Assembly (NCBI GenBank): GCA_040757775.1
Contig: JBFLWQ010000007.1
Span: 65,728 to 129,727, forward strand
Direction of reading: 5' to 3'
Length of the DNA stretch: 64,000 nt
Source: Thermodesulfobacteriota bacterium
Lineage (GTDB): Bacteria; Desulfobacterota; UBA8473
The notes below the pieces were generated by a model, which saw only the letters and a program-made list of their open reading frames with translations, was not told where the DNA came from and did no database searches. The translations under genes and the position numbers were made by a program. Positions 18,251 to 64,000 of this stretch are shown piece after piece. Every line of letters begins with the position of its first letter. The first letter of the stretch is position 1.

Positions 18251-18301
18251 CAACAGCGCGTTCAACAGCGGGCTTAAGCCCGCTGTTATGGTGCGCTGTT
18301 G
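18251..18301. promoter_or_regulatory. Nested palindrome upstream of hslV (candidate operator or structured leader)
   Basis: Perfect 24-bp palindrome AACAGCGGGCTTAAGCCCGCTGTT (18264-18287), enclosed by a 9-bp outer stem CAACAGCGC/GCGCTGTTG. Confidence 0.35.
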
Positions 18302-18332
18302 GCAATACCGTGAACAATAGAAGGATGTAGTT

Positions 18333-18860
18333 ATGTTTAAAGGGACTACCATTTTGTGTGTCAGGCATAAAGGGAAGATTGCCCTTGGTGGTGATGGGCA
18401 GGTAACCCTTAACGATACCATTATGAAACATGGTGCAAGGAAGGTTAGGCGTTTATACAACGATAATGTCCTTGCCGGCTTTGCCGGAACAACTGCGGAT
18501 GCCTTTACCCTGTTTGAGAAGTTTGAGGGTAAACTGGAACAGTATCATGGCAATCTGACCAGGGCAGCTGTGGAGCTGGCGAAAGATTGGCGGACAGACA
18601 AGATACTCCGCAGATTGGAAGCTCTACTGATTGTGGCTGACAAGGAGCATACCCTGATTATATCGGGTAACGGGGATGTTATTGAGCCCGATGAAGGGGC
18701 AATTGCTATAGGTTCAGGGGGAGCATATGCCTTAGCTTCTGCAAAGGCTCTCATAAAGCATTCTGATCTGGATGTAAAGAGTATAGTCGAAGAGTCCATG
18801 AGAATTGCAGCAGGCATCTGTGTTTACACCAATGACAGGATATTTATAGAAGAATTGTAA
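18333..18860 (+). CDS. hslV: ATP-dependent protease subunit HslV
   Basis: The Thr nucleophile follows Met at [21 protein letters not shown]. Confidence 0.95.
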
Positions 18861-18914
18861 CCGGAAGACAACTTATATTGAACGTCTTTAAATAAGTAGA
18901 CATTCAACCGAAAT

Positions 18915-18988
18915 GTCATTCCGAGCGAAGCGAGGAATCTCATAAAGATTGCCACGTCGTTCGCCTGTGGCGAACTCCTCGCAATGAC
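18915..18988. repeat. MITE-like repeat copy A (74 bp) with GTCATT..GAG / CTCGCAATGAC inverted termini, inserted between hslV and hslU
   Basis: Shares its termini and the internal blocks AATCTCATAA and AGATTGCCACGTCG with the element at 62670-62761, in opposite orientation. Confidence 0.6.
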
Positions 18989-19071
18989 TACCTTCTGATG
19001 TTATTTACTATGGTAGAATGGTTCCAAAATGACATGTTAGACGAAAGATTAATTAGTTGCTTTGAGGAGGA

Positions 19072-20436
19072 TTGATGTCAATTTTCAAGCCTAGAGAGAT
19101 TGTTGCAGAACTGGATAAATATATAATAGGACAGAAAAATGCAAAGAGGGCGGTAGCTATTGCATTAAGAAACAGATGGAGGAGACAACAGGTCCCGGAG
19201 GATCTTAAAGATGAAATTGCCCCCAAAAATATTATTATGATTGGACCTACAGGGGTCGGTAAAACAGAGATAGCCAGAAGGCTTGCTAAGCTTGCCCAGT
19301 CACCCTTCCTGAAGATCGAGGCGTCCAAATTTACAGAAGTCGGATATGTTGGGAGAGATGTAGAGTCTATGATTCGCGACCTTACAGAACTGGCAGTTAA
19401 TATGGTAAAAGGTGAAGAAGCAGAAAAGGTTCGCAGCAAGGCCAGGGAGATTGCGGAGGAGAGGGTTTTAGACCTATTACTGCCTTACCAAACGGGAATG
19501 AGAGGCGTTGGTGAGAAATTAACAAACGGGACAGATATTGAAGCTAAAAGTAATCAAATAGGCACCAGGGAAAAGCTAAGGGAGTTACTGCGAAAAGGGA
19601 AGCTGGATGAAAGAATTGTAGATCTAGAAGTAACTCACAGGAATATTCCTGTCATAGAGGTCTTCTCTGCATACGGCATGGAAGAGATGGATATAAACCT
19701 TAAGGATGTATTCAGCAACCTCTTTCCTGAAAAGACAAAGAAGAGAAAGCTTAAAGTCCCCGATGCGGTAAGCATCCTCTTCCAGGAAGAAGAGCAAAAG
19801 TTAATAGATATGGACAATGTCAGTAAGCTTGCTAAAAAGAGGGTGGAGCAATCAGGTATAATCTTCATAGATGAGATTGATAAAATTGCCGGAAGAGAAT
19901 CAGGCCATGGCCCTGACGTATCCAGAGAAGGGGTTCAGAGAGATATTTTGCCCATTGTTGAGGGAACAACAGTAACGACCAAGTATGGAATGGTAAAAAC
20001 TGATCACATACTGTTCATTGCTGCGGGGGCGTTCCATATTTCAAAACCTTCCGATCTTATTCCGGAGCTTCAGGGAAGATTCCCGATAAGGGTGGAATTG
20101 GATTCTCTTGGCAAAGAGGAGTTTATCAGGATTCTGACAGAGCCTCAAAATGCCCTGATAAAACAGTACACTGCCTTACTGAAGACCGAAGATATAAACA
20201 TGATTTTTAAAGATGATGCCATTGGTGAGATTGCCGAAATCGCCAGCTTAGTTAACGAGAGAACAGAGAATATTGGTGCCAGAAGACTGTACACGATTAT
20301 GGAAAAACTATTGGATGATATCTCCTTCGACGCCCCAGATTTAAATGATAAAGACATTGTTATAGATACTGACTATGTTAAAGGAAAATTGTTAGATTTT
20401 GTTAAAGATGAAGACCTGAGCAGATATATCCTTTAA
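19072..20436 (+). CDS. hslU: ATP-dependent protease ATPase subunit HslU
   Basis: [15 protein letters not shown], Walker [16 protein letters not shown], and a ClpX-like AAA+ module. Confidence 0.95.
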
Positions 20437-28800: not shown

Positions 28801-29227
28801 TACCTTTTCTTTGACTGGACAATATGCTCCTACTGTTAGATTAAACTCTACTGCGTTATTTGATAACAATGGGTCAACCATCTTTCCAAATGAAGAATTG
28901 AAAACACATTTATTATTGGGGTTGCTTGCATCAAAGTTAATGAAATATTTTTTTAAGAATTTTATTGATCATACCGTGCACGCACAAGTTAATGATTTTA
29001 AAGGTTTGCCAATAGTAATTAGTTTTAATCCTGCGGTTGATAAACTTGTTCGCCAAATTTTTGTAAAACAAAAACAAAATCCCCGCTATGATTATATGAG
29101 CAACGAGCAGAAAGAAATTGATAAATTGGTTTATGAAATGTACGGCTTGAACGCCGAAGATATTCGCGAAGTGGAAACTTGGTATGCCCGCCGATATCCA
29201 AAATTGGCGAGATTTTGCGAAGTGTAA
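25856..29227 (+). CDS. MmeI/PglX/Eco57I-like gamma-class N6-adenine DNA methyltransferase with TRD, no recognisable PD-ExK nuclease; frame terminates one nt before its conserved C-terminal helix
   Basis: PYLNGGLF (~aa 300), GTFYTPREVV, motif I LDPAVGSAAF, motif IV GNPPYG. GAGGAG SD before ATG 25856 (the ORF track starts at TTG 25844). The +1 frame from 29229-29308 encodes KQIDQMVYNLYELTEDEIKIVEGKG*. Confidence 0.85.
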   Translation: MPELYNNARKILYDIIEDFSPDKFIRFFREKSRAFTPREEELFQYDDDNFRNGVNLGEIQFAQDEKMLVCAFEASQPLSERSGKKAQYEKGKKILKESQSEAGIFIFYDPRGNFRFSLIYANYLGTRRDWSAFRRFTYFVNPEFTNKTFLQRIGGEDNDDSFSSLEKIKDVFSVEKVTNKFFDDFRVIFERTKHEFEKQNKNTVCLWLKDRYTDEEYKEQINRFVYTFLGRIVFVYFLQRKGWIENQVNYIRKTLENNSNTSLYLSFFQPLFFDVFAKKESERPAEIKKQYKDTPYLNGGLFERSELENNLQEKGIFIFFDDKFIRDIILNFFENYNFTIDENSPDDQEVSIDPEMLGKVFENTLAEEERGKKGTFYTPREVVHFMVKDSLWQFLQNETKINKEKLHQLIYDKEEIEPLTLKKEEIRLLDDKLEHIKVLDPAVGSAAFPVEMMQVLVNLRKRLNVNVGKNINEVSLKKHFIKENLYGVDIDPGAIEIAKLRLWLALIVDYEKSEAEPLPNLDFQFRVGNSLQEKIDDIDIFQEEMVGQYGLFKSESEYEKMKDRMIAIKDKFYLSDNENEKKRLKKQFDNLEHELIQAVLKNYGNQFKSQIDNVDTLVKGQRKVKVQKEIEKTLKIIAKLEQKIKDGTYKLFKPDFHFSEVFDRKDNNNNKIGGFDIVIGNPPYGVKVENDIKEWHGLGSKDSYGIFISTALKRFLKPGGILSFIVSDTWLTIKTHKPLREQVLGKQLHKIIRVHQDCFEATVNACIMSVTNRSDNDSKLITADFTNISTRKEIEELREKLYHLDDFIGQSTSKLAVYEYNQGLIKTNSNLPIFVGSPKLFQFMSYPHGVSSLYPNFADVKKGIDTGENDYFLYQNPVARGNYRPVPQERILNEYEISLLTIDERLHGIDPQKHKGKYIIPYDKGGESDTDEGWLPNYFVPTDYFIDWSRVSVKELRSRTQRDSGKNKASIRNEDSWFKKGITFSLTGQYAPTVRLNSTALFDNNGSTIFPNEELKTHLLLGLLASKLMKYFFKNFIDHTVHAQVNDFKGLPIVISFNPAVDKLVRQIFVKQKQNPRYDYMSNEQKEIDKLVYEMYGLNAEDIREVETWYARRYPKLARFCEV

Positions 29228-29231
29228 AAAA

Positions 29232-29299
29232 CAGATTGACCAGATGGTCTATAACCTCTATGAGCTGACAGAAGATGAGATAAAGATTGTGGAGGGGAA
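29232..29299 (+). repeat. 68-bp direct repeat copy 1 (3' end of MTase gene plus SD)
   Basis: 66/68 identical to 29867-29934. Ends in GTGGAGGGGAA immediately before the ATG of the next gene. Confidence 0.85.
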
Positions 29300-29799: not shown

Positions 29800-29866
29800 C
29801 TGCTGCCCCCAAATCCTCACTGCCCAAAAGAAAGACCCCAATACCTACACATCGGCACTGGAAAGG

Positions 29867-29934
29867 CAGATTGACTAGATGGTCTATAACCTCTATGGGC
29901 TGACAGAAGATGAGATAAAGATTGTGGAGGGGAA
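29867..29934 (+). repeat. 68-bp direct repeat copy 2 (decayed: in-frame TAG)
   Basis: CAGATTGACTAGATGGTCTATAACCTCTATGGGCTGACAGAAGATGAGATAAAGATTGTGGAGGGGAA. Confidence 0.85.
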
Positions 29935-31315: not shown

Positions 31316-33665
31316 CTCTACTTCCCTTTAGAAGCGCTGCCTCTAGCACGTCATCCATCTTTTTAGCGAAAACAAAAGTAATCTTCTTTTTTATGTAGTT
31401 AGGGATATCATCCAGGTCTTTCCTGTTTCTCTCAGGAATAATTACAGTCCCAATCTTTGCCCGCAATGCAGCTAAAGTCTTCTCTTTCAACCCTCCAATT
31501 GGAAGCACTCTTCCTCTCAGGGTTATTTCACCTGTCATAGCTATATCCTTATTGACAGGGGTTTTTGAAAGGGCAGAGATTAAGGCAGTAGCCATAGTTA
31601 CCCCTGCTGATGGACCGTCTTTGGGGATAGCCCCTGCCGGAATATGGATATGGGCATCCTGTTTTTTGTAGAAATCTTCGTCTAATTTCAACTCCTTTGC
31701 CTTTGAACGGGCATAGCTCAGGGCAGCCTGTGCAGATTCTTTCATTACATCTCCCAGTTGTCCGGTAAGGATTAAGTCCCCTTTCCCTTTCATGGTGGAT
31801 GCTTCTATGTGCAAGATTTCCCCGCCTGCCTGTGTCCAGGCAAGGCCAGTCGCAACTCCAGCCTCACTTATTGCTTGCTCCTCTTCAGGCAGGTACACAG
31901 GTGTGCCCAGGTATTTGTGCAGGTTTCCTCTATTAACCCTGGAAACCCCTTTTTTCCCTTCAGCGATCCTTCGGGCTACTTTTCTACATATACTCGCAAT
32001 CTCCCGTTCAAGGTTTCTAAGTCCGGCTTCTTGAGTATAGTGGGAAATTATCTGTAATATAGCTTCATTCGACATCTTCATATCTTTTTCTGTAATTCCG
32101 TTTTCTTCTAACTGTAGAGGGAGTAAAAACTTTAGCGCTATCTTTAACTTTTCTTCTTCTGTGTATCCTGAGAGAGTAATGACCTCCATTCGGTCTTTCA
32201 AGGCAGGGATGATTGGGTCTACGAGATTTGCAGTGGTAATAAACATAACATTTGAAAGATCAAAAGGGACATTCAGATAGTGGTCACTAAAAGCAAAGTT
32301 CTGCTCGGGATCCAAAACTTCTAAAAGGGCGGCAGAAGGGTCTCCCCGGAAATCTGCCCCCACTTTATCTATTTCATCCATCATGAAAACCGGATTATTT
32401 GATCCTGCTTGTTTGATGCTCTGAATTATCCGCCCTGGCAGTGCTCCTACATAGGTTCTTCTGTGTCCTCTAATCTCTGCTTCGTCTCTAACACCACCAA
32501 GGGATATCCTTGTAAACTTACGCCCTAAAGCCCTGGCAATGGATTTGCCCAACGATGTTTTTCCCACTCCTGGTGGGCCAACAAAGCAAAGGATAGGGCC
32601 TTTCTTCTTTTTGCTCAGCTTGCGGACACCCAGGTATTCCAGTATCCTTTCTTTAACCTTTTCTAAATTATAATGATCCTCATCCAGTACTTTTTTAGCA
32701 GCCTTTATATCGAGGTTGTCTTCGGTAATTATCTTCCAGGGAAGCTCTACCAGCCAATCAAGATAGGTTCTAACTATAGATGCCTCTGCTGCATCAGGGT
32801 GCATCTGTTCCAGCCTGTCCATCTGTTTGTTGGCTTCTTTCTCAACCTCTTTAGGCATCTTTGCCTTTTTGATCTTCTTCTTGAAGTCTATTATTTCTTT
32901 TGTCCTTTCATCTACATCTCCCAGTTCATTCTTGATTGCCCGAAGCTGTTCCCTCAGGAAGTAATCTCGCTGTGTCTTGGTCATTTCTTCTTTAGCCTGG
33001 GACTGTATCTTTGCCTGCATGCTTGAGAGCTCTACTTCTTTGCTTAAAAGCTCATTAACCTTTATGAGGCGATCAATAGGGTTAAAAATCTCCAGGACCT
33101 GCTGAGCTTCCTCAATCTTCAAATTCAGGTTTGAAGCCACCAGATCTGCCAGTCTTCCCGGGTCTTCAATATTATTAAGGATCATTACAACATCTGAAGA
33201 CAACAAGCCTCTTAAAGAAAGTACCTTCTCACTGTGTTCCTTAACACTTCGCATCAGGGCTTCTGCCTCCAGGGGCAGTTCAGGCATAATCGGTTCCTTG
33301 ATCGTATCGATATTCACCATGTAACAAGGTTTCTGTTGTATGTACTCAATTATACGCCCTCTCATTAAACCCTGAACCAGAATCTTTACCCTTCCGTCAG
33401 GGAGTTTTAGCATTCTCATAACCGTAGCCACCGTTCCCACAGAATAGATACTCTCGGGTTTCGGATCTTCAACCGTCGGGTCCTTCTGAGTAGCTAAGAA
33501 TATCAAACGGTTTTTTGATAATGCCTCATCAACGGCCTTGATGGACCCTTCTCTACCTACAAACAATGGTACAATCATGTATGAAAATATGACGACGTCT
33601 CTGACAGGCAATAAGGGCAGGGTATCCGGAATCTCAACATCTTCTCTCTTTATATCATAATCCAT
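31263..33665 (-). CDS. lon: ATP-dependent protease Lon (paralogue 1)
   Basis: LON N-domain, AAA+ GPPGVGKTS, and S16 protease PKDGPSAG. The 3' end overlaps the thiL start by about 50 nt. Confidence 0.95.
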
Positions 33666-49591: not shown

Positions 49592-50935
49592 TTATTTCTT
49601 GATTACTAGTATAGTATCAAAGTTGGCTTCTATGCGCCGGTTTTTCTTGCGCCCTTCAGCAGTCTTGTTATCTGCAATCGGCATGGTCTCTCCATATCCC
49701 TTTGCCGAAAGGCGGGAACGATTAATACTGAATTTCTGCACAAGATAATTCACAACGCTCTCGGCACGCCGCCGGGAAAGGTCCTCATTCATTGCGGCTT
49801 TCCCGACATTGTCGGTGTGTCCTTCAATGGTACCGGTAGCCTTGGGATATTTTTTCAGAAAATCCGCAATCTTGGCGATTTCTTCATGATATTGGCTCTT
49901 GATGTCAGCCTTGGCCGTGTCAAACTCAATCGCAAGGGTTATAGATACCTTTTCCTTTTGCAGTGGTATCGGACAGCCATCTTTGTCAACAACAGTACCT
50001 ATCGGTGTTCCAGGACACTTGTCAAGGTAGTCCGCTACACCGTCCTTATCAGAATCGAGCGGGCAACCATCCTTATCAACAGTAACATCTTCCGGTGTTC
50101 CAGGACACTTGTCAAGATAGTCCGCTACACCGTCCTTATCAGAATCAAGCGGACAACCATCCTTATCAACAGTAACATCTTCCGGTGTTCCAGGACACTT
50201 GTCAAGGTAGTCCGCTACACCGTCCTTATCAGAATCAAGCGGGCAACCATCCTTATCAACAGTAACACCTTCCGGTGTTCCAGGACACTTGTCAAGGGAA
50301 TCTACTACACTGTCATGGTCTGAATCTTGTTCTACCGGTGGTGCCGCCTCCTCCTGTTTTTTAGGTTCCTCGGCTTGTTTAGCCACGACAACAGGGGCCG
50401 CAGCACGCTTGGCACCTCCGAAGTAAAAGGTCAAACCCAGGGTGGATTCCAGGTTGTTGTAAACACTGCCGATACCTAAAACATGCCGTACATCAGCCCG
50501 GAGTGCCAGCCAGTCCGTGAAAAAATATTTCAAACCAGCCCCGTATGCAGGGGTGAACCGCGAGTCATCCTTGATACCGTCGTAGTCGATGCTCATGCCT
50601 CCGACTCCGGCAGCCAGGAAGGGGACCAACCTGCTGTCCGGCATAAAATGGTATAGCGCCTCAATCCGATAATTGTAGACGTCGGTACCAGAGTCCGTGG
50701 GTTTGTACTTGGTGTCCACATAGTTGAAAACCAACTCGGTACCCCAGTTTTTGGTTAAATCGTAACCGACACGCAAGCCGTAGACTGGCTTATCTCTCAG
50801 GTCCTGGTTGCCCTCGAACAAAAACCAACCCGCGAAGGGAGAAATGGAAAAGGCGCCGGGCTTGATTTCACCAAGTGCCGGTTTACTGAGAAGTATCAAG
50901 AGAATGATAGCGAGAAAAAAATGAATTTTCTTCAT
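49592..50935 (-). CDS. OmpA-family outer-membrane protein with thrombospondin type-3 (TSP3) Ca-binding repeats
   Basis: N-terminal beta-barrel, 4 x 30-aa DSDKDGVADYLDKCPGTPEDVTVDKDGCPL repeats, and a C-terminal OmpA domain (TGTIEGHTDNVG...NRR). Confidence 0.85.
   Translation of the reverse strand: MKKIHFFLAIILLILLSKPALGEIKPGAFSISPFAGWFLFEGNQDLRDKPVYGLRVGYDLTKNWGTELVFNYVDTKYKPTDSGTDVYNYRIEALYHFMPDSRLVPFLAAGVGGMSIDYDGIKDDSRFTPAYGAGLKYFFTDWLALRADVRHVLGIGSVYNNLESTLGLTFYFGGAKRAAAPVVVAKQAEEPKKQEEAAPPVEQDSDHDSVVDSLDKCPGTPEGVTVDKDGCPLDSDKDGVADYLDKCPGTPEDVTVDKDGCPLDSDKDGVADYLDKCPGTPEDVTVDKDGCPLDSDKDGVADYLDKCPGTPIGTVVDKDGCPIPLQKEKVSITLAIEFDTAKADIKSQYHEEIAKIADFLKKYPKATGTIEGHTDNVGKAAMNEDLSRRRAESVVNYLVQKFSINRSRLSAKGYGETMPIADNKTAEGRKKNRRIEANFDTILVIKK
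49967..50326. repeat. 4 x 90-bp tandem repeat (TSP3 units) inside the OmpA-family gene; middle units near-identical
   Basis: Repeating CCGGTGTTCCAGGACACTTGTCAAGGTAGTCCGCTACACCGTCCTTATCAGAATC... blocks. Confidence 0.85.
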
Positions 50936-51114: not shown

Positions 51115-51594
51115 TCATTTCTTTCCTTTGCCTTTCATTTTGTCTATGATATCCATGCCTCTGCCTTTATCCTTGCCCTTGTCCTTATCTTTGCCCTTGT
51201 CCTTATCCTTGCCTTTGTCAAGATCATGGCCGCGCTTCAGGGCATGGAATTCCTCTGATCCAGGTTTGATACCCAGGCTCTTAGCAATTACACCCCAGCC
51301 CTTACCCTTGTTGGATTTGTATTTTTGAATAACATATTCTGGTGGATGGTTTGACATTTCTCCAAGGCGGAAAACCATATAAGCGTCCGCAGGTCTTTCA
51401 ACATTGCCTAGCACAGCATTGACTTGCACAGGGCCGATATTGAAACGCGTTGCAATTTGTGCCCTGAATCCTGACTGGTCTGCTTCAGCTCTGATATTAA
51501 GATTTTGCATCCAATCAAAATCACCTGCTACTGCTGCTGATGGAACAAGTAAAATCAGAATCGAGATCACAAAAAACATTTTTTGTAGTCTCAT
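51115..51594 (-). CDS. Secreted hypothetical protein with a C-terminal (KDKG)n low-complexity tail
   Basis: Signal peptide MRLQKMFFVISILILLVPSAAVA. The tail DKGKDKDKGKDKDKGKDKG is encoded by 12-bp tandem repeats at about 51160-51222. Confidence 0.6.
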   Translation of the reverse strand: MRLQKMFFVISILILLVPSAAVAGDFDWMQNLNIRAEADQSGFRAQIATRFNIGPVQVNAVLGNVERPADAYMVFRLGEMSNHPPEYVIQKYKSNKGKGWGVIAKSLGIKPGSEEFHALKRGHDLDKGKDKDKGKDKDKGKDKGRGMDIIDKMKGKGKK

Positions 51595-53791: not shown

Positions 53792-56242
53792 TTAATTTAC
53801 AGATTGGTTTGTAACCTCCTGGATTCTTTCTTGTTCATAGAACTCCTCAGTAATCCCTTCATCCTCTTTCTTTTTCATAAAATTGTCAGGGTCATCCAGT
53901 ATCAAAGCCCTTTTCAAGACCTCATCCATATGCTCTACCATCACAATATATACTGTCTTTAAAATCTTGACAGGGACTTCCTTAATATCCTTTTCGTTCT
54001 CCTTAGGAATAATGATTGTCTTTATACCACCCCTGTGAGCAGCCAAAACCTTCTCTTTAAATCCACCAATGGGAAGGACCCTGCCTCTAAGGGTTATTTC
54101 CCCTGTCATAGCTATATCCTTCCTCACAGGTTTCCTAATCAACGCAGAGGTTATAGAGGTTGCTATGGTAATGCCAGCCGAAGGCCCATCTTTTGGTATA
54201 GCCCCTTCTGGAACATGTATATGTATATCAATGTTTTGATAAAAATTCCTTTCTAAACCAAAGAGTTCTGCCCTTGACCGAACATAACTCAGAGCAGCAT
54301 GGGCAGATTCCTGCATAACATCACCCAGTTTTCCAGTAACAGTCAGTTTTCCCTTGCCCGGCATAACTGTTACCTCTATAGCAAGTAATTCTCCCCCCAG
54401 TTCGGTCCAGGCAAGGCCAGTTGCAAGCCCCACTGTGTCATCATCTTCCGCTTTACCATATCTGTATTTAGGAACCCCCAAATACTTCTGAAGACTACTT
54501 GACTGAATCCTGACTTTTGTATTCTTCCCTTTTTTGGCGACCTCTTTTGCTACTTTCCGACAAATAGATGCTATCTCGCGTTCAAGGTTCCTGACACCTG
54601 CTTCCCTGGTATATCTACGGATTACGCCGAGAATAGAATGAAGTGAGAAAACAACATTTTTATCAGCCAGACCATGGGCTTCTATCTGTTTTGGAATCAA
54701 AAACTTTTTAGCTATATTCAATTTTTCTAATTCTGTATAACCAGCAATACGAATAACTTCCATACGGTCCTGCAGAGGGAGAGGGATTGAAAACAAAGTA
54801 TTTGCTGTAGTAATGAACATCACCTTAGAAAGATCATAATCTACATCTATATAGTGGTCGTTGAATGCCTGATTCTGTTCAGGATCCAATACTTCCATCA
54901 ATGCAGCTGATGGGTCTCCTCTAAAATCAGTGCTCATCTTGTCCACTTCGTCTAACAGGAATACAGGGTTATTTGAGCCCGCCTTCTTTATAGACTGGAT
55001 GATCTTACCAGGCATTGAACCAATATAAGTTCTACGATGCCCTCTTATCTCAGCTTCATCACGGACTCCACCAAGTGAACACCTTACAAACTTCCTTCCG
55101 GTTGCTCTTGCAATAGATTTGGCCAAAGAGGTTTTACCCACCCCAGGAGGACCCACGAGACAAAGGATTGGTCCCTTCATCTTCTTAACCAAGCTTTGAA
55201 CAGCAAGATATTCTACTATTCGTTCCTTAACCTGTTTTAACCCATAGTGATCCTCATCTAAAATTTTCTCAGCTTCTGTTATGTCCAATTTATCTTCAGT
55301 TTCATCATACCAGGGAAGGGAGATCAACCAATCTATATAATTGCGTACCACTGTGGCTTCAGCAGACATAGGGGCCATCATTTTAAGCTTTTTAAACTCT
55401 TTTTCGACCTTTGTTGTTGCCTCCTTTGACATCCTTTTCTTTTTAATATTTTCTTCTAGTTCCTTAAGCTCAGTCTTAAACTCATCCTTTTCCCCCATCT
55501 CTTTTTGAATTGCCCGCATCTGTTCGCTGAGGTAGTACTCTTTTTGGCTCTTCTCCATCTGCTTTCTAACTCTGGTCTTAATCTTCTTTTCTATCTGGAG
55601 GATTTCAATTTCAGACTCAATTAGTTGGAACAGTTTCTCTAATCTCTCTGCGGTATTGAAAGTTTCTAAAATATCTTGTTTATCCTCCAACTTAATATTT
55701 ACATGAACAACAATAGTATCGGCTAATCGACTCGGGTCATCAATGGACAATACGGAAGATAGCATATCCTGGGAGATTTTTTTATTCAGTCTGACGAAAA
55801 TCTCAAAGGAATCTTTAAGATTCCGCATCAATGCCTCAATTACATTGGTTATTTTCTGAAAATCATTTACCTCCTCAACACTCACCTGCAAGAACTGTGT
55901 ATTGGGAATAATTCTCCTTATCACTGCCCTTTTTTTACCCTCAATAAGAACCTTAACTGTTCCATCCGGTAGTTTTAAAAGCTGAAGGATGGTGCTCAAA
56001 GTCCCAACCCTGTAAATATCATCATCTGAAGGGTTGTTAACCTTAGCATCCTTTTGGGTAGTCAGGAACAAGCTTTTTTCATTCTTTAGAGCATATTCCA
56101 ATGCATCTATCGACTTTTCCCTACCAACAAACAGTGGCACCACCGAATAAGGAAATACTACAATATCCCTAAGGGGCAGCAAAGGATATATACTTTCAAC
56201 ACTAGGTGCGTTATTAGAGCCTTTGGAAAGTTTGAACAACAT
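53792..56242 (-). CDS. lon: ATP-dependent protease Lon (paralogue 2, in the tig-clpP-clpX-lon cluster)
   Basis: GPPGVGKTS and PKDGPSAG. About 55% identity to lon-1 by eye. Confidence 0.95.
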
Positions 56243-62163: not shown

Positions 62164-62634
62164 TTACTTATTGAACCTTAATGACCTTTCTAAATCTCTT
62201 TTTTCCGTTTCCTTTTTTATGCTTTCCCTCTTATCGTAGAGTTTCTTGCCCCTTGCCAGTCCTAGTTCTACTTTTGCCTTTCCATTTTTTAAATACATAC
62301 TCAGAGGGATAAGAGTCATCCCCCTCTCATTAATCTTTCCAATCAACCGCTTTATTTCTACCTTATGCAGGAGCAACTTGCGCTCTCGGAGTGGGTCATG
62401 ATTGAATTGATTGGCATGTTCATAAGGAGAAATGTGTGTATTTATTAAAAACAGCCCTCCATTCTTTATCTTAGCATAGCTGTCTTTTAGACTTACTTTT
62501 CCCAGCCTGCATGATTTTATCTCACTGCCTTTAAGCACAATACCTGCTTCGTATTTCTCATCAATAGAATAATCATGCCATGCCTTTCTATTTTTACATA
62601 TCATTTTTTCAGAGAATGATTTCTTTGCTACCAT
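62164..62634 (-). CDS. smpB: SsrA-binding protein SmpB
   Basis: NRKAWHDYSIDEKYEAGIVLKGSEIKS is canonical SmpB. Confidence 0.95.
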   Translation of the reverse strand: MVAKKSFSEKMICKNRKAWHDYSIDEKYEAGIVLKGSEIKSCRLGKVSLKDSYAKIKNGGLFLINTHISPYEHANQFNHDPLRERKLLLHKVEIKRLIGKINERGMTLIPLSMYLKNGKAKVELGLARGKKLYDKRESIKKETEKRDLERSLRFNK

Positions 62635-62669
62635 CTACCATCTTAGACCTTTGAAAATTTATACAAACT

Positions 62670-62761
62670 GTCATTGCGAGGACCAGAGCGACGTGGCAAT
62701 CTCTTTGATAATCAGCCCGTTATGAGATTGCTTCATCCGCCTCTGGCGGATTCGCAATGAC
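62670..62761. repeat. MITE-like repeat copy B (92 bp), GTCATTGCGAG ... TTCGCAATGAC inverted termini
   Basis: 10/11-bp TIR. Internal blocks are shared with copy A (18915-18988). Confidence 0.6.
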
Positions 62762-62931
62762 AAATTGGGCATTCTTCAAAGCTCTCCATCTATATCGGGG
62801 AACTATACTAAAACATAATCAAAAAATGAATGCTGAAGCGAAAAGAGATATTTTTTGTATTGTAATACAGAGACGAAAAGATGTCAAGAGAACACACTAT
62901 CCGGTAGTGTCCTAATTTAAACCTTGAACAA

Positions 62932-63201
62932 TTGGAGATTATATTATATATTATAATAAATGGTGACAAGATGGATTTTGTTTATATTAAATGGTTAGAT
63001 TCTAAAAGTGCTTCTAATGAATGGGAATATTTAGAAGAGATTGAGTCATTAAAACCTGTATTTTGTGAATCTATTGGGTTTTTAATAGAAAGCAATGAAG
63101 AATATAAAACATTGGCTTCCACTATTAGTGAAAGCCAAGTTTTGGGCAGGATAACCATTCCTTCTTGCTCAATTGTTAATTATCGGGTATTATCCCAATA
63201 A
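62932..63201 (+). CDS. Hypothetical small protein in an AT-rich region next to the IS
   Basis: ORF only. No motif recognised. Confidence 0.25.
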   Translation: MEIILYIIINGDKMDFVYIKWLDSKSASNEWEYLEEIESLKPVFCESIGFLIESNEEYKTLASTISESQVLGRITIPSCSIVNYRVLSQ

Positions 63202-63373
63202 TTATTATCTTTTCTTTTTTTTGTCAGGGCGTTGCGTTAGGGCTGAACCAGCAACGCTCTTGACTTTTTGGGGCGTCTTAGGGTCTTTAAGAAGTTTGGA
63301 AGCAATTGTTCCAACTTTCTTAGATGTTCTTTCATTTTTTGCCATTCTATCACCTCCCTTCTAATAAATTTGG

Positions 63374-64000
63374 TTATCCTGCCCAATTTAGAATTTCTTC
63401 AAAAGACCAAATATGATCTGTAATCCCTGCTGCCATTGAAGGCGTAATCCTCAGTGTAGTATGAATTCTCACAAAATTGTAATGTGCAAAGTGTAATGCC
63501 ACGGCTGCTTTCAGGTTTTTGATCTTTTTACTGAAAGCATTGGTTAAACGAGTGAAGCGTCTGCTTTGCATCCTCACAGTGAGATTTTGCCTTTCCACGT
63601 ATGAAGTGCAAATCTTAGCTGGATTGGGATTTCCTATAATATATTGTTTCGTTGTGGAAATGACTTTTGGTGTGCTATACTTACCAGCACTGATCGGCTC
63701 CGCTTCATACGATTTTACAATTTGTGCATAATCGACATTGCCGCCAAAAGCGAAATCTATCGCATCTACATACGCCCTCAATTTATCCGAACTTATTTGA
63801 ACTCTATTAGTAAGGCGTGATTCTAAGTCGGTAATAAACGCATACGCTGTAGCAAAATCACGTTTTCCAACTTTGTATGCTGGAATTAATTTGGTGTCTG
63901 GATCAAGCGCAACAAATGTGTAAAAATCGCCAACCTCATTAGGATTGTCAGTTGTCTTAATGTGGCGCTGTTTTTTGCCGACGTATGCCCATAACTCATC
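63374..64000 (-). mobile_element. IS1-family-like DDE transposase gene, 5' part beyond window end
   Basis: The open frame reaches the window edge. Residues ...DELWAYVGKKQ... and C-terminal ...HYNFVRIHTTLRITPSMAAGITDHIWSFEEIL resemble IS1 InsB-like transposases. Family assignment is from memory. Confidence 0.55.

Follow-up and report, generated by a model that had tools for sequence, protein, structure and literature searches.

The window analysed here, a 64,000-nucleotide (64-kb) stretch of Thermodesulfobacteriota contig JBFLWQ010000007.1, contains two copies of a short dispersed repeat with inverted termini, one between hslV and hslU and the other upstream of smpB. The organism is an uncultured groundwater bacterium that belongs to the Thermodesulfobacteriota / “Deltaproteobacteria CG” group. 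Copy A (18915-18988) is a 74-nucleotide inverted doublet consisting of two hairpin arms and a 7-nucleotide spacer, and it lies between hslV (18333-18860, + strand; Pfam Proteasome, E = 1.2e-26) and hslU (19075-20436, + strand). Copy B (62670-62761) is a 92-nucleotide inverted doublet in the upstream region of smpB (62164-62634, - strand). The first-pass annotation of this DNA had placed the repeat at both positions, and both copies are indeed present there; its identification of hslV, hslU and smpB was likewise borne out, and the transfer-messenger RNA (tmRNA) was also confirmed. Altogether, our analysis makes it very probable that the two copies are gene-less inverted doublets of the hairpin recognized by Ssn-family GIY-YIG nucleases (NTS/SRM-type, “CGTC-tagged REP”, for repetitive extragenic palindromic sequence).

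When at most one mismatch is allowed, GTCATTGCGAG occurs at four sites in the 64 kb, which are precisely the four ends of copies A and B. The chance expectation for such sites is 0.49, and a count of 4 was reached in 0 of 100 shuffles. Two of the ends need correcting in the first-pass annotation: the left end of copy A is GTCATTCCGAG rather than GTCATTGCGAG, and the right end of copy B actually reads TTCGCAATGAC. The internal blocks AATCTCATAA and AGATTGCCACGTCG are common to both copies in opposite orientation, as had been proposed. In addition, a structure-aware regular expression run over the window returned four arms, equal to two doublets, and no other credible match.

Each of the four arms carries a tag, a palindromic stem and a short tail (tags TGTC in three arms and AGTC in one; tails CTC or CTT). 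The left arm of copy A (18914-18941, + strand) consists of the TGTC tag, an ATTCC stem, the insert GA-GC-GAA-GC-GA, the complementary GGAAT and the tail CTC, with the predicted DNA hairpin ....(((((..((...))..)))))...; its best match outside the window is an arm in locus L206 (96% over 27 nucleotides). We rejected the idea that this arm is decayed, as ATTCC/GGAAT is a compensated stem variant. The right arm of copy A (18945-18989, - strand) is built from AGTC, ATTGC, GAGGAG, a TTCGCC-ACA-GGCGAA inner hairpin, CGACGTG, GCAAT and C, and its DNA fold has a predicted energy of -11.2 kcal/mol (z = -4.0). In copy B, the left arm (62669-62703, + strand) is a long-insert “type 2” arm made of TGTC, ATTGC, GAGGACCAGAGCGACGTG, GCAAT and CTC, and the right arm (62724-62762, - strand) is made of TGTC, ATTGC, GA, an ATCCGCC-AGA-GGCGGAT inner hairpin, GAA, GCAAT and CTC (DNA fold of -10.3 kcal/mol, z = -4.1). 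Both arms of the window that contain a GC-rich inner hairpin thus reach DNA-fold z values of about -4. As whole doublets, copy A is predicted to fold with -29.3 kcal/mol as RNA (z = -3.1) and -17.7 kcal/mol as DNA (z = -3.5), and copy B with -43.6/-45.2 kcal/mol as RNA (z = -5.2) and -24.4 kcal/mol as DNA (z = -4.5). The suggestion that the shorter copy A is a deletion derivative of copy B did not hold up, given that the two differ in their combinations of arm subtypes and align with a mean column identity of about 66%.

To place these copies in a wider context, we scanned one genome per species for 185,579 species with the doublet pattern GTCATTSCGA-N46-76-TCGCAATGAC. The pattern was found in at least 120 stretches of these species-representative genomes, distributed over many phyla, and in at least 120 stretches of IMG/VR viral contigs. 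The matches listed span Alpha- and Gammaproteobacteria, Bacteroidota, Cyanobacteria, Chloroflexi, Patescibacteria, Planctomycetota, Nitrospirota and others, and include Bradyrhizobium, sphingomonads, Mucilaginibacter, Pedobacter, Flavobacterium, Nostoc and Microcoleus. Among them, the doublets occur in every genomic context and on both strands, and their structure is two-fold symmetric. Across 890 kb of element-bearing loci (the first 120 loci), the termini formed 140 short-range pairs, against 27 that were solo or degenerate, a share of dimers that is biased upward by the choice of this sample through the dimer pattern; no long element bounded by the termini was present in the same 890 kb. 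In the IMG/VR collection, close relatives of the nuclease described below are scarcer, with best identities of 51-57%.

Each element among the matches listed is an inverted doublet of a single hairpin unit. The unit reads, in order, a (C/T)GTC tag, ATTGC, GA, a variable inner stem of 2-9 bp closed by a GNA triloop, GNN, GCAAT and C. Among 250 half-elements, 69% have C and 27% have T before GTC, and near the GIY-YIG genes this base is T in 288 cases, C in 75, A in 18 and G in 12; the GTC itself was fixed by the search pattern, yet it is also invariant beside those genes. About 97% of arms have a tail beginning with C, and the tail reads CCA in 52% (123 of 238). The outer stem is ATTGC...GCAAT in 457 of 510 arms, and the compensated alternatives, namely ATTCC/GGAAT (5), ATTCT/AGAAT (5) and ATTAC/GTAAT (1), all keep ATT/AAT. 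Inner stem sequences are numerous and unrelated to one another, with mainly GNA loops. A perfect inner stem of at least 5 bp is found in 28% of long inserts versus 3% in shuffles, and in the common 12-nucleotide insert GAGCGNAGCGAA the sole free position is the loop centre N. Taken together, the compensated outer stem, the excess of inner stems over shuffles and the constrained GAGCGNAGCGAA insert indicate that each arm folds on itself. In 125 elements, the composition of the flanks is random past position -2, so that the conserved target amounts to a pyrimidine at -2. No gathering-threshold match was found in Rfam for the window and 10 further loci, nor anything meaningful at the E-value threshold for either copy, and an exact-string search of the literature for the termini and core returned primers only.

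A link to a protein emerged from one of the 120 loci (L109), in which an open reading frame (ORF) of the GIY-YIG type lies 84 nucleotides from the element. Proteins of the family to which this ORF belongs are about 95 amino acids long and match Pfam GIY-YIG (E = 5.8e-18); between members from Cyanobacteria, Dehalococcoidia, Deltaproteobacteria and Aerophobetes, identity is about 75%. NCBIfam holds no specific model for it, and the closest sequence in the PDB is UPF0213 protein BH0048 (1ZG2, E = 3.8e-6). An initial search with a GIY-YIG regular expression and jackhmmer found one adjacent gene in 1.15 Mb, which is about what would be expected if a genome carries one cassette against hundreds of doublets. 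The association became clear from the opposite direction, using 80 metagenomic loci fetched by the protein alone. We found that GTCATTGCGA termini are present in 79 of these 80 GIY-YIG loci, and that tag-outward arms stand on both sides of the gene, within 150 nucleotides, in 54 of the 67 loci with sufficient flank. The density of termini is 7.17 per kb within 300 nucleotides of the gene versus 0.53 per kb beyond, a 13-fold enrichment. The gene is located between GCAATCTC and GAGATTGC, the exact place of the doublet spacer, and the end of the spacer in copy B (...GTTATGAGATTGC) resembles the 3' ends of the cassettes. Since the arms bracket a gene in these loci and the window copies carry none, the latter can be described as gene-less derivatives resembling miniature inverted-repeat transposable elements (MITEs). 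This outcome bears on the MITE-like label of the first-pass annotation: the repeat is indeed dispersed, non-coding and inverted at its termini, and it is the gene-less form of a unit that brackets a small gene, but its parent is an Ssn-type GIY-YIG nuclease cassette and neither the IS1-like neighbour nor any DDE insertion sequence.

A small single-domain GIY-YIG nuclease with comparable surroundings has been described in Neisseria, where NTS repeats (CGTCATTCCCGCGMAVGCGGGAATCYRG) are bound and cut by the single-stranded DNA (ssDNA)-specific enzyme SsnA (Chenal 2025, Nat Commun, PMC11893778). In that work, cleavage is governed by three bases upstream of the palindrome and binding by the C after it; homologues of SsnA across bacteria are flanked by related motifs, in the arrangement NTS-ssnA-NTS. 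Our nuclease family matches an N. gonorrhoeae ORF with 44.6% identity over 97% of its length (E = 2e-19). This ORF contains Y6, Y17 and E64, the residues that were mutated in SsnA, is surrounded by 16 NTS repeats, and from its sequence would be the SsnA orthologue. It is unannotated, encodes 92 amino acids and lies in NZ_CP119140.1 (1880778-1884053), where the 16 repeats fall within 3.3 kb; the record is labelled a plasmid but has a length of 2.17 Mb and is evidently the chromosome. Many of the gonococcal NTS repeats form tag-outward doublets spanning about 104 nucleotides, an architecture like that of the window element. A further locus is found on a Planktothrix agardhii plasmid (NZ_LR882964.1, 17350-20613), in which an annotated GIY-YIG nuclease gene, 65% identical to P0347, a protein of this nuclease family, stands between an MmeI-type restriction-modification gene and the DISARM gene drmA, with tandem GTCATTCTGAG... 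arms of the ATTCT/AGAAT stem variant in its flanks.

A second published group of relevance is the CGTC-tagged REP super-family of Di Nocera, De Gregorio and Rocco (2013, BMC Genomics, PMC3733652), to which Neisseria dRS3 and Rickettsia RPE-4/RPE-6 belong. Its members have a CGTC tag (with the variants TGTC and CCTC), stems beginning with AT and a CCA tail; they occur in several phyla, are abundant in alphaproteobacteria, and are mainly present as dimers, inverted ones having spacers of about 4-46 nucleotides. No transposase or associated gene was found for them, and the peptides encoded by the published families are VIPAKAGI, VIAGLDPAIH and VIPWLDHGI (PMC3733652).

At the copy A site, the hslV-hslU spacer had been given as 210 bp and is in fact 211 bp when measured to a TTG codon or 214 bp when measured to the ATG at 19075; the latter is the likely hslU start, because close homologues have 453 amino acids. 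In the closest relatives, which come from two samples and have a 97% identical HslU (L126 and L127), this spacer is 28 bp long. The difference is a 186-bp segment (18861-19046, + strand) that directly follows the hslV stop codon, holds copy A near its centre and is absent from both relatives; in the alignment the gap is clean, with about 97% identity on both sides. Copy A is therefore polymorphic by insertion or deletion. Inside this segment, its flanks of 54 and 58 bp have no match among the sequences compared, and no target duplication accompanies the copy. A metagenome scan with the 29-mer beside hslU gave no match. In relatives whose HslU is 91-95% identical, the spacer is unrelated, measures 103 or 124 bp and contains none of the termini, a comparison made by length and terminus absence because these spacers are too diverged to align. 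Consequently, the premise that hslV and hslU are normally adjacent or overlapping does not apply to this lineage, in which element-free spacers measure 28, 103 and 124 bp. Within the 186-bp segment, 18899-18909 (GACATTCAACC) and 19020-19033 (GGTTCCAAAATGAC) constitute a weak outer inverted repeat, which resembles degenerate GTCATT / AATGAC termini and may be an older, decayed doublet enclosing copy A.

At the copy B site, the position between smpB and the IS1-like transposase gene proved partly accurate: the copy is located upstream of smpB, at a distance of 35 bp from its start codon, and about 600 bp containing small ORFs separate it from the end of the IS1-like ORF. The IS1-like assignment itself comes from a weak Pfam match (DDE_Tnp_IS1, E = 4.2e-5). 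Around the copy extends an imperfect palindrome (62645-62785) with the outer arms AGACCTTTGAA... / ...TTCAAAGCTCT, which is local sequence outside the dispersed family. A relative with a 94% identical SmpB (L134) is without the copy B block, and compared with it the block is inserted at the smpB start codon, with nAGATGG occurring three times, one distal and two proximal (62600-62660, - strand); these repeats surround an inserted block that is larger than the element. The insertion leaves a decoy ATG 7 nucleotides upstream of the real smpB start and out of frame with it. Relatives with a 92% identical SmpB (L138-L143) have a decayed remnant (TGTCAC...TCGAAATGACG) surrounded by the outer arm CTTTGAAAATTTATACAAAC. 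The outer arm of copy B matches this orthologous site only, and there it is in the opposite orientation relative to smpB, which suggests either an in-situ inversion of the palindromic block or an independent insertion at the same spot. The DNA upstream of smpB varies between close relatives, with a tyrosine integrase and toxin-antitoxin or TIR genes in some relatives, a nucleotidyltransferase (NTP-transferase) gene in another, and the IS1-like and small ORFs in the window; judging from these gene contents, it behaves as an integration hot spot. We also considered a larger mobile unit with conserved outer arms and rejected it, since the flanks of copy A match nothing, the outer arms of copy B match the orthologous site only, and flanks beyond position -2 are random across the 125 elements.

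Based on the nuclease association, we can outline how such copies would relate to an Ssn-type enzyme. The Ssn-family nuclease would bind the hairpins solely in ssDNA and cut just 5' of the tag. In the full-length unit, the gene of a nuclease of about 95 amino acids lies between two arms, and the window copies would be the non-autonomous form. New copies would presumably be produced by copying or repair during ssDNA events, for which an Ssn nuclease encoded at another place in the genome would be required. We infer that the source genome encodes such a cognate nuclease; if so, both window sites would be cut whenever they become single-stranded.

Several observations weigh against the Ssn-family assignment. 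Neither the 64-kb window nor the relatives' contigs, about 200 kb in all, contain a GIY-YIG gene. The segment missing from the closest relative at hslV-hslU is 186 bp, larger than the 74-bp element and inclusive of flanks outside the family, and at smpB there is no clean empty site for the 92-nucleotide element alone, the missing segment there being about 160 bp, again with non-family flanks. Plain arms have only about -2.7 kcal/mol by standard nearest-neighbour energies, with z near 0. The published SRM pattern, HGTCWYN(0-2)YYVSBRHN(0-5)WNVSBRGN(0-2)RNCYNB, matches 0 of the 4 window arms and neither consensus arm, while the NTS control matches. Finally, the window-type arms are without the continuous 8-9-bp stem and 4-5-nucleotide loop of the four published CGTC families, having instead a 5-bp outer stem, a GA/GNN internal loop, an inner stem of 2-9 bp and a 3-nucleotide GNA loop.

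We next weighed these data against other explanations. If the repeat were primarily a cis-acting RNA element, favoured by selection at hslV-hslU because it uncouples these genes as a terminator, attenuator, stabiliser or promoter, stable RNA hairpins would be in keeping with this role, and the predicted folds do provide them (-29 to -45 kcal/mol, z of -3 to -5); moreover, REP hairpins stabilise upstream mRNA in E. coli, a point discussed in PMC3733652. However, simple scans of the hslV-hslU spacer detected neither a terminator-like site nor a promoter-like site on the + strand, contrary to the terminator or promoter function that had been envisaged for copy A. Specifically, there is no terminator-like site in 18300-19300, and the sequence past copy A is TACCTTCTGATG, which has no U-tract. 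The repeat has no Rfam match, is two-fold symmetric and occurs in all genomic contexts on both strands; it is missing from relatives with a 91-97% identical HslU and is thus not a conserved regulator of hslVU; and SsnA acts on ssDNA, not on RNA. A regulatory origin of this kind is, on these grounds, improbable. Given that the coding sequences and the hslU ribosome-binding region (GAGGAGGATTG-ATG) are untouched and that a U-tract is absent, copy A is probably in essence a passenger at hslV-hslU with a slight effect on hslVU. At most, it would add a stable stem-loop to the bicistronic mRNA, which by analogy with the E. coli REPs could shift the HslV:HslU ratio.

Explanations that invoke a transposase are less probable still. 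If the copies were MITEs moved by the transposase of a DDE insertion sequence, for instance the IS1-like element beside copy B, this would agree with the inverted termini, the nearby ORF with its weak IS1 match and the short ATGG-containing direct repeats beside the insertion at smpB. Yet no other GTCATTGCGAG-like terminus exists in the window, including 63200-64000, which holds the in-window end of the insertion sequence (its far end falls beyond the window), and copy A has no target duplication. The termini pair at short range across the 890 kb and bound no long element; flank composition and complementarity are random past -2; and the termini, conserved from phylum to phylum, accompany the GIY-YIG gene and not a DDE transposase. 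For the in-window end, the comparison with the inverted repeats of the adjacent insertion sequence that the first-pass annotation had proposed gave a negative answer, and we consider this origin highly improbable. A REPIN, in which a doublet of classical REPs is moved in trans by a RAYT (an IS200/IS605-type Y1, or HUH, transposase), has the same architecture of two inverted hairpin units and a spacer, with high copy number and intergenic placement. This explanation is nonetheless very unlikely, because the tag is (C/T)GTC and not GTAG, 79 of 80 loci have a GIY-YIG nuclease as the bracketed gene, and Di Nocera et al. (PMC3733652) found no tyrosine transposase flanked by CGTC repeats. As for a chance likeness of two unrelated palindromes, the small number of copies in the window (two) is all that speaks for it. 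The first-pass annotation had named a lack of further copies and of conserved termini as the sign of such chance similarity, and we found very many copies, with termini conserved across phyla. With the shuffles never reaching the observed count, at least 120 matching stretches in each of two collections and a common internal design, chance similarity of A and B is already refuted, and its remaining probability is practically negligible.

A more far-reaching proposal is that the Ssn nuclease is the mobiliser of an unrecognised class of transposable elements, with the gene-less doublets of 70-95 nucleotides as its MITEs. According to this proposal, the nuclease gene would be bracketed by two tag-outward ssDNA hairpins, cleavage would take place at the outer edges of the arms, and the unit would spread within genomes as well as between phyla, along with its conserved nuclease. 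The polymorphism of both copies among close relatives, the position of the gene in the doublet spacer and the nuclease identity of about 75% across phyla are what point to it, and on this sequence evidence we regard it as a tentative and rather doubtful possibility. The IS-like idea of Chenal et al. fits with the relation between full-length and gene-less forms and with the polymorphism. Both this relation and the presence or absence of copies in near-identical strains bear on whether Ssn cassettes are mobile.

The assignment also has consequences for annotation. Short ORFs run over the elements in the window, at 18824-18955 (- strand; …FLASLGMTF…) and 62671-62772 (- strand; …KEIATSLWSSQ), and ARND, LAMT and EIASLRSQ* are repeat-derived peptide motifs that possibly mark spurious gene calls from such hairpins. 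By this assignment, the unusual palindromes that give rise to the countless spurious “ARND / LAMT / EIASLRSQ” mini-ORFs of many phyla fall among the CGTC-REP / Ssn motifs, and intergenic hairpin pairs, together with the short ORFs across them, can be flagged as repeat-derived. Apart from the two copies, a repeat finder reported tandem arrays with periods of 90 nucleotides (49970-50326) and 18 nucleotides (51150-51221) in the window, as well as a 73-nucleotide pair with 95% identity (29227-29299 and 29862-29934). The stretches 31468-32039 and 54039-54613, which are 22.6 kb apart and 74-84% alike, are probably paralogous genes.

Compared with known systems, the window-type repeat is closest in several respects to SRM/SsnA. 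It has GTC 5' of the palindrome and C directly after it, it occurs in hundreds of copies, often as tag-outward doublets, and its repeats flank a small single-domain GIY-YIG gene. It differs in the stem, which in NTS is continuous (ATTCCCGC/GCGGGAAT) and here is ATTGC/GCAAT, with the GA/GNN internal loop and the GNA-triloop hairpin breaking its continuity. The placement of the gene differs as well: here the gene is usually enclosed by a single doublet whose tags point outward (54 of 67 loci), whereas at the gonococcal locus the tags of the nearest arms face the gene. With the CGTC-tagged REPs, the repeat shares the CGTC/TGTC tag, a stem opening with A-T and T-A, a CCA-type tail and inverted dimers. 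In contrast to the paper describing them, a GIY-YIG gene is associated here, and the peptides expected from the window subtype (ARND, LAMT, VIAS) are not in its list of intragenic elements (PMC3733652).

Similarities to mobile systems are of a more general kind. As in the REPIN-RAYT system (Bertels and Rainey 2011; Nunvar 2010), the inverted doublet is foldable as one long hairpin, and short non-autonomous units accompany an enzyme gene bracketed by the same units; the enzyme here is GIY-YIG instead of Y1/HUH, and the tag is GTC instead of GTAG. REPINs are lineage-specific, whereas the unit seen in the window hardly varies from one phylum to another, and the same is true of its nuclease. Bacterial MITEs such as Correia, Nezha and Chunjie are likewise short, non-coding, hairpin-forming and intergenic, with inverted termini and an origin in a longer gene-bearing unit, but for the present repeat there is no DDE parent, target-site duplication is not consistent, and the pyrimidine at -2 is all that is conserved of a target. 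Judged by sequence, then, the kind of element is already known, namely that of the CGTC-REPs and Ssn motifs, and what appears to be new is a sequence subtype missed by the published pattern, with a nuclease subfamily about 75% identical across phyla that extends the known range of Ssn motifs.

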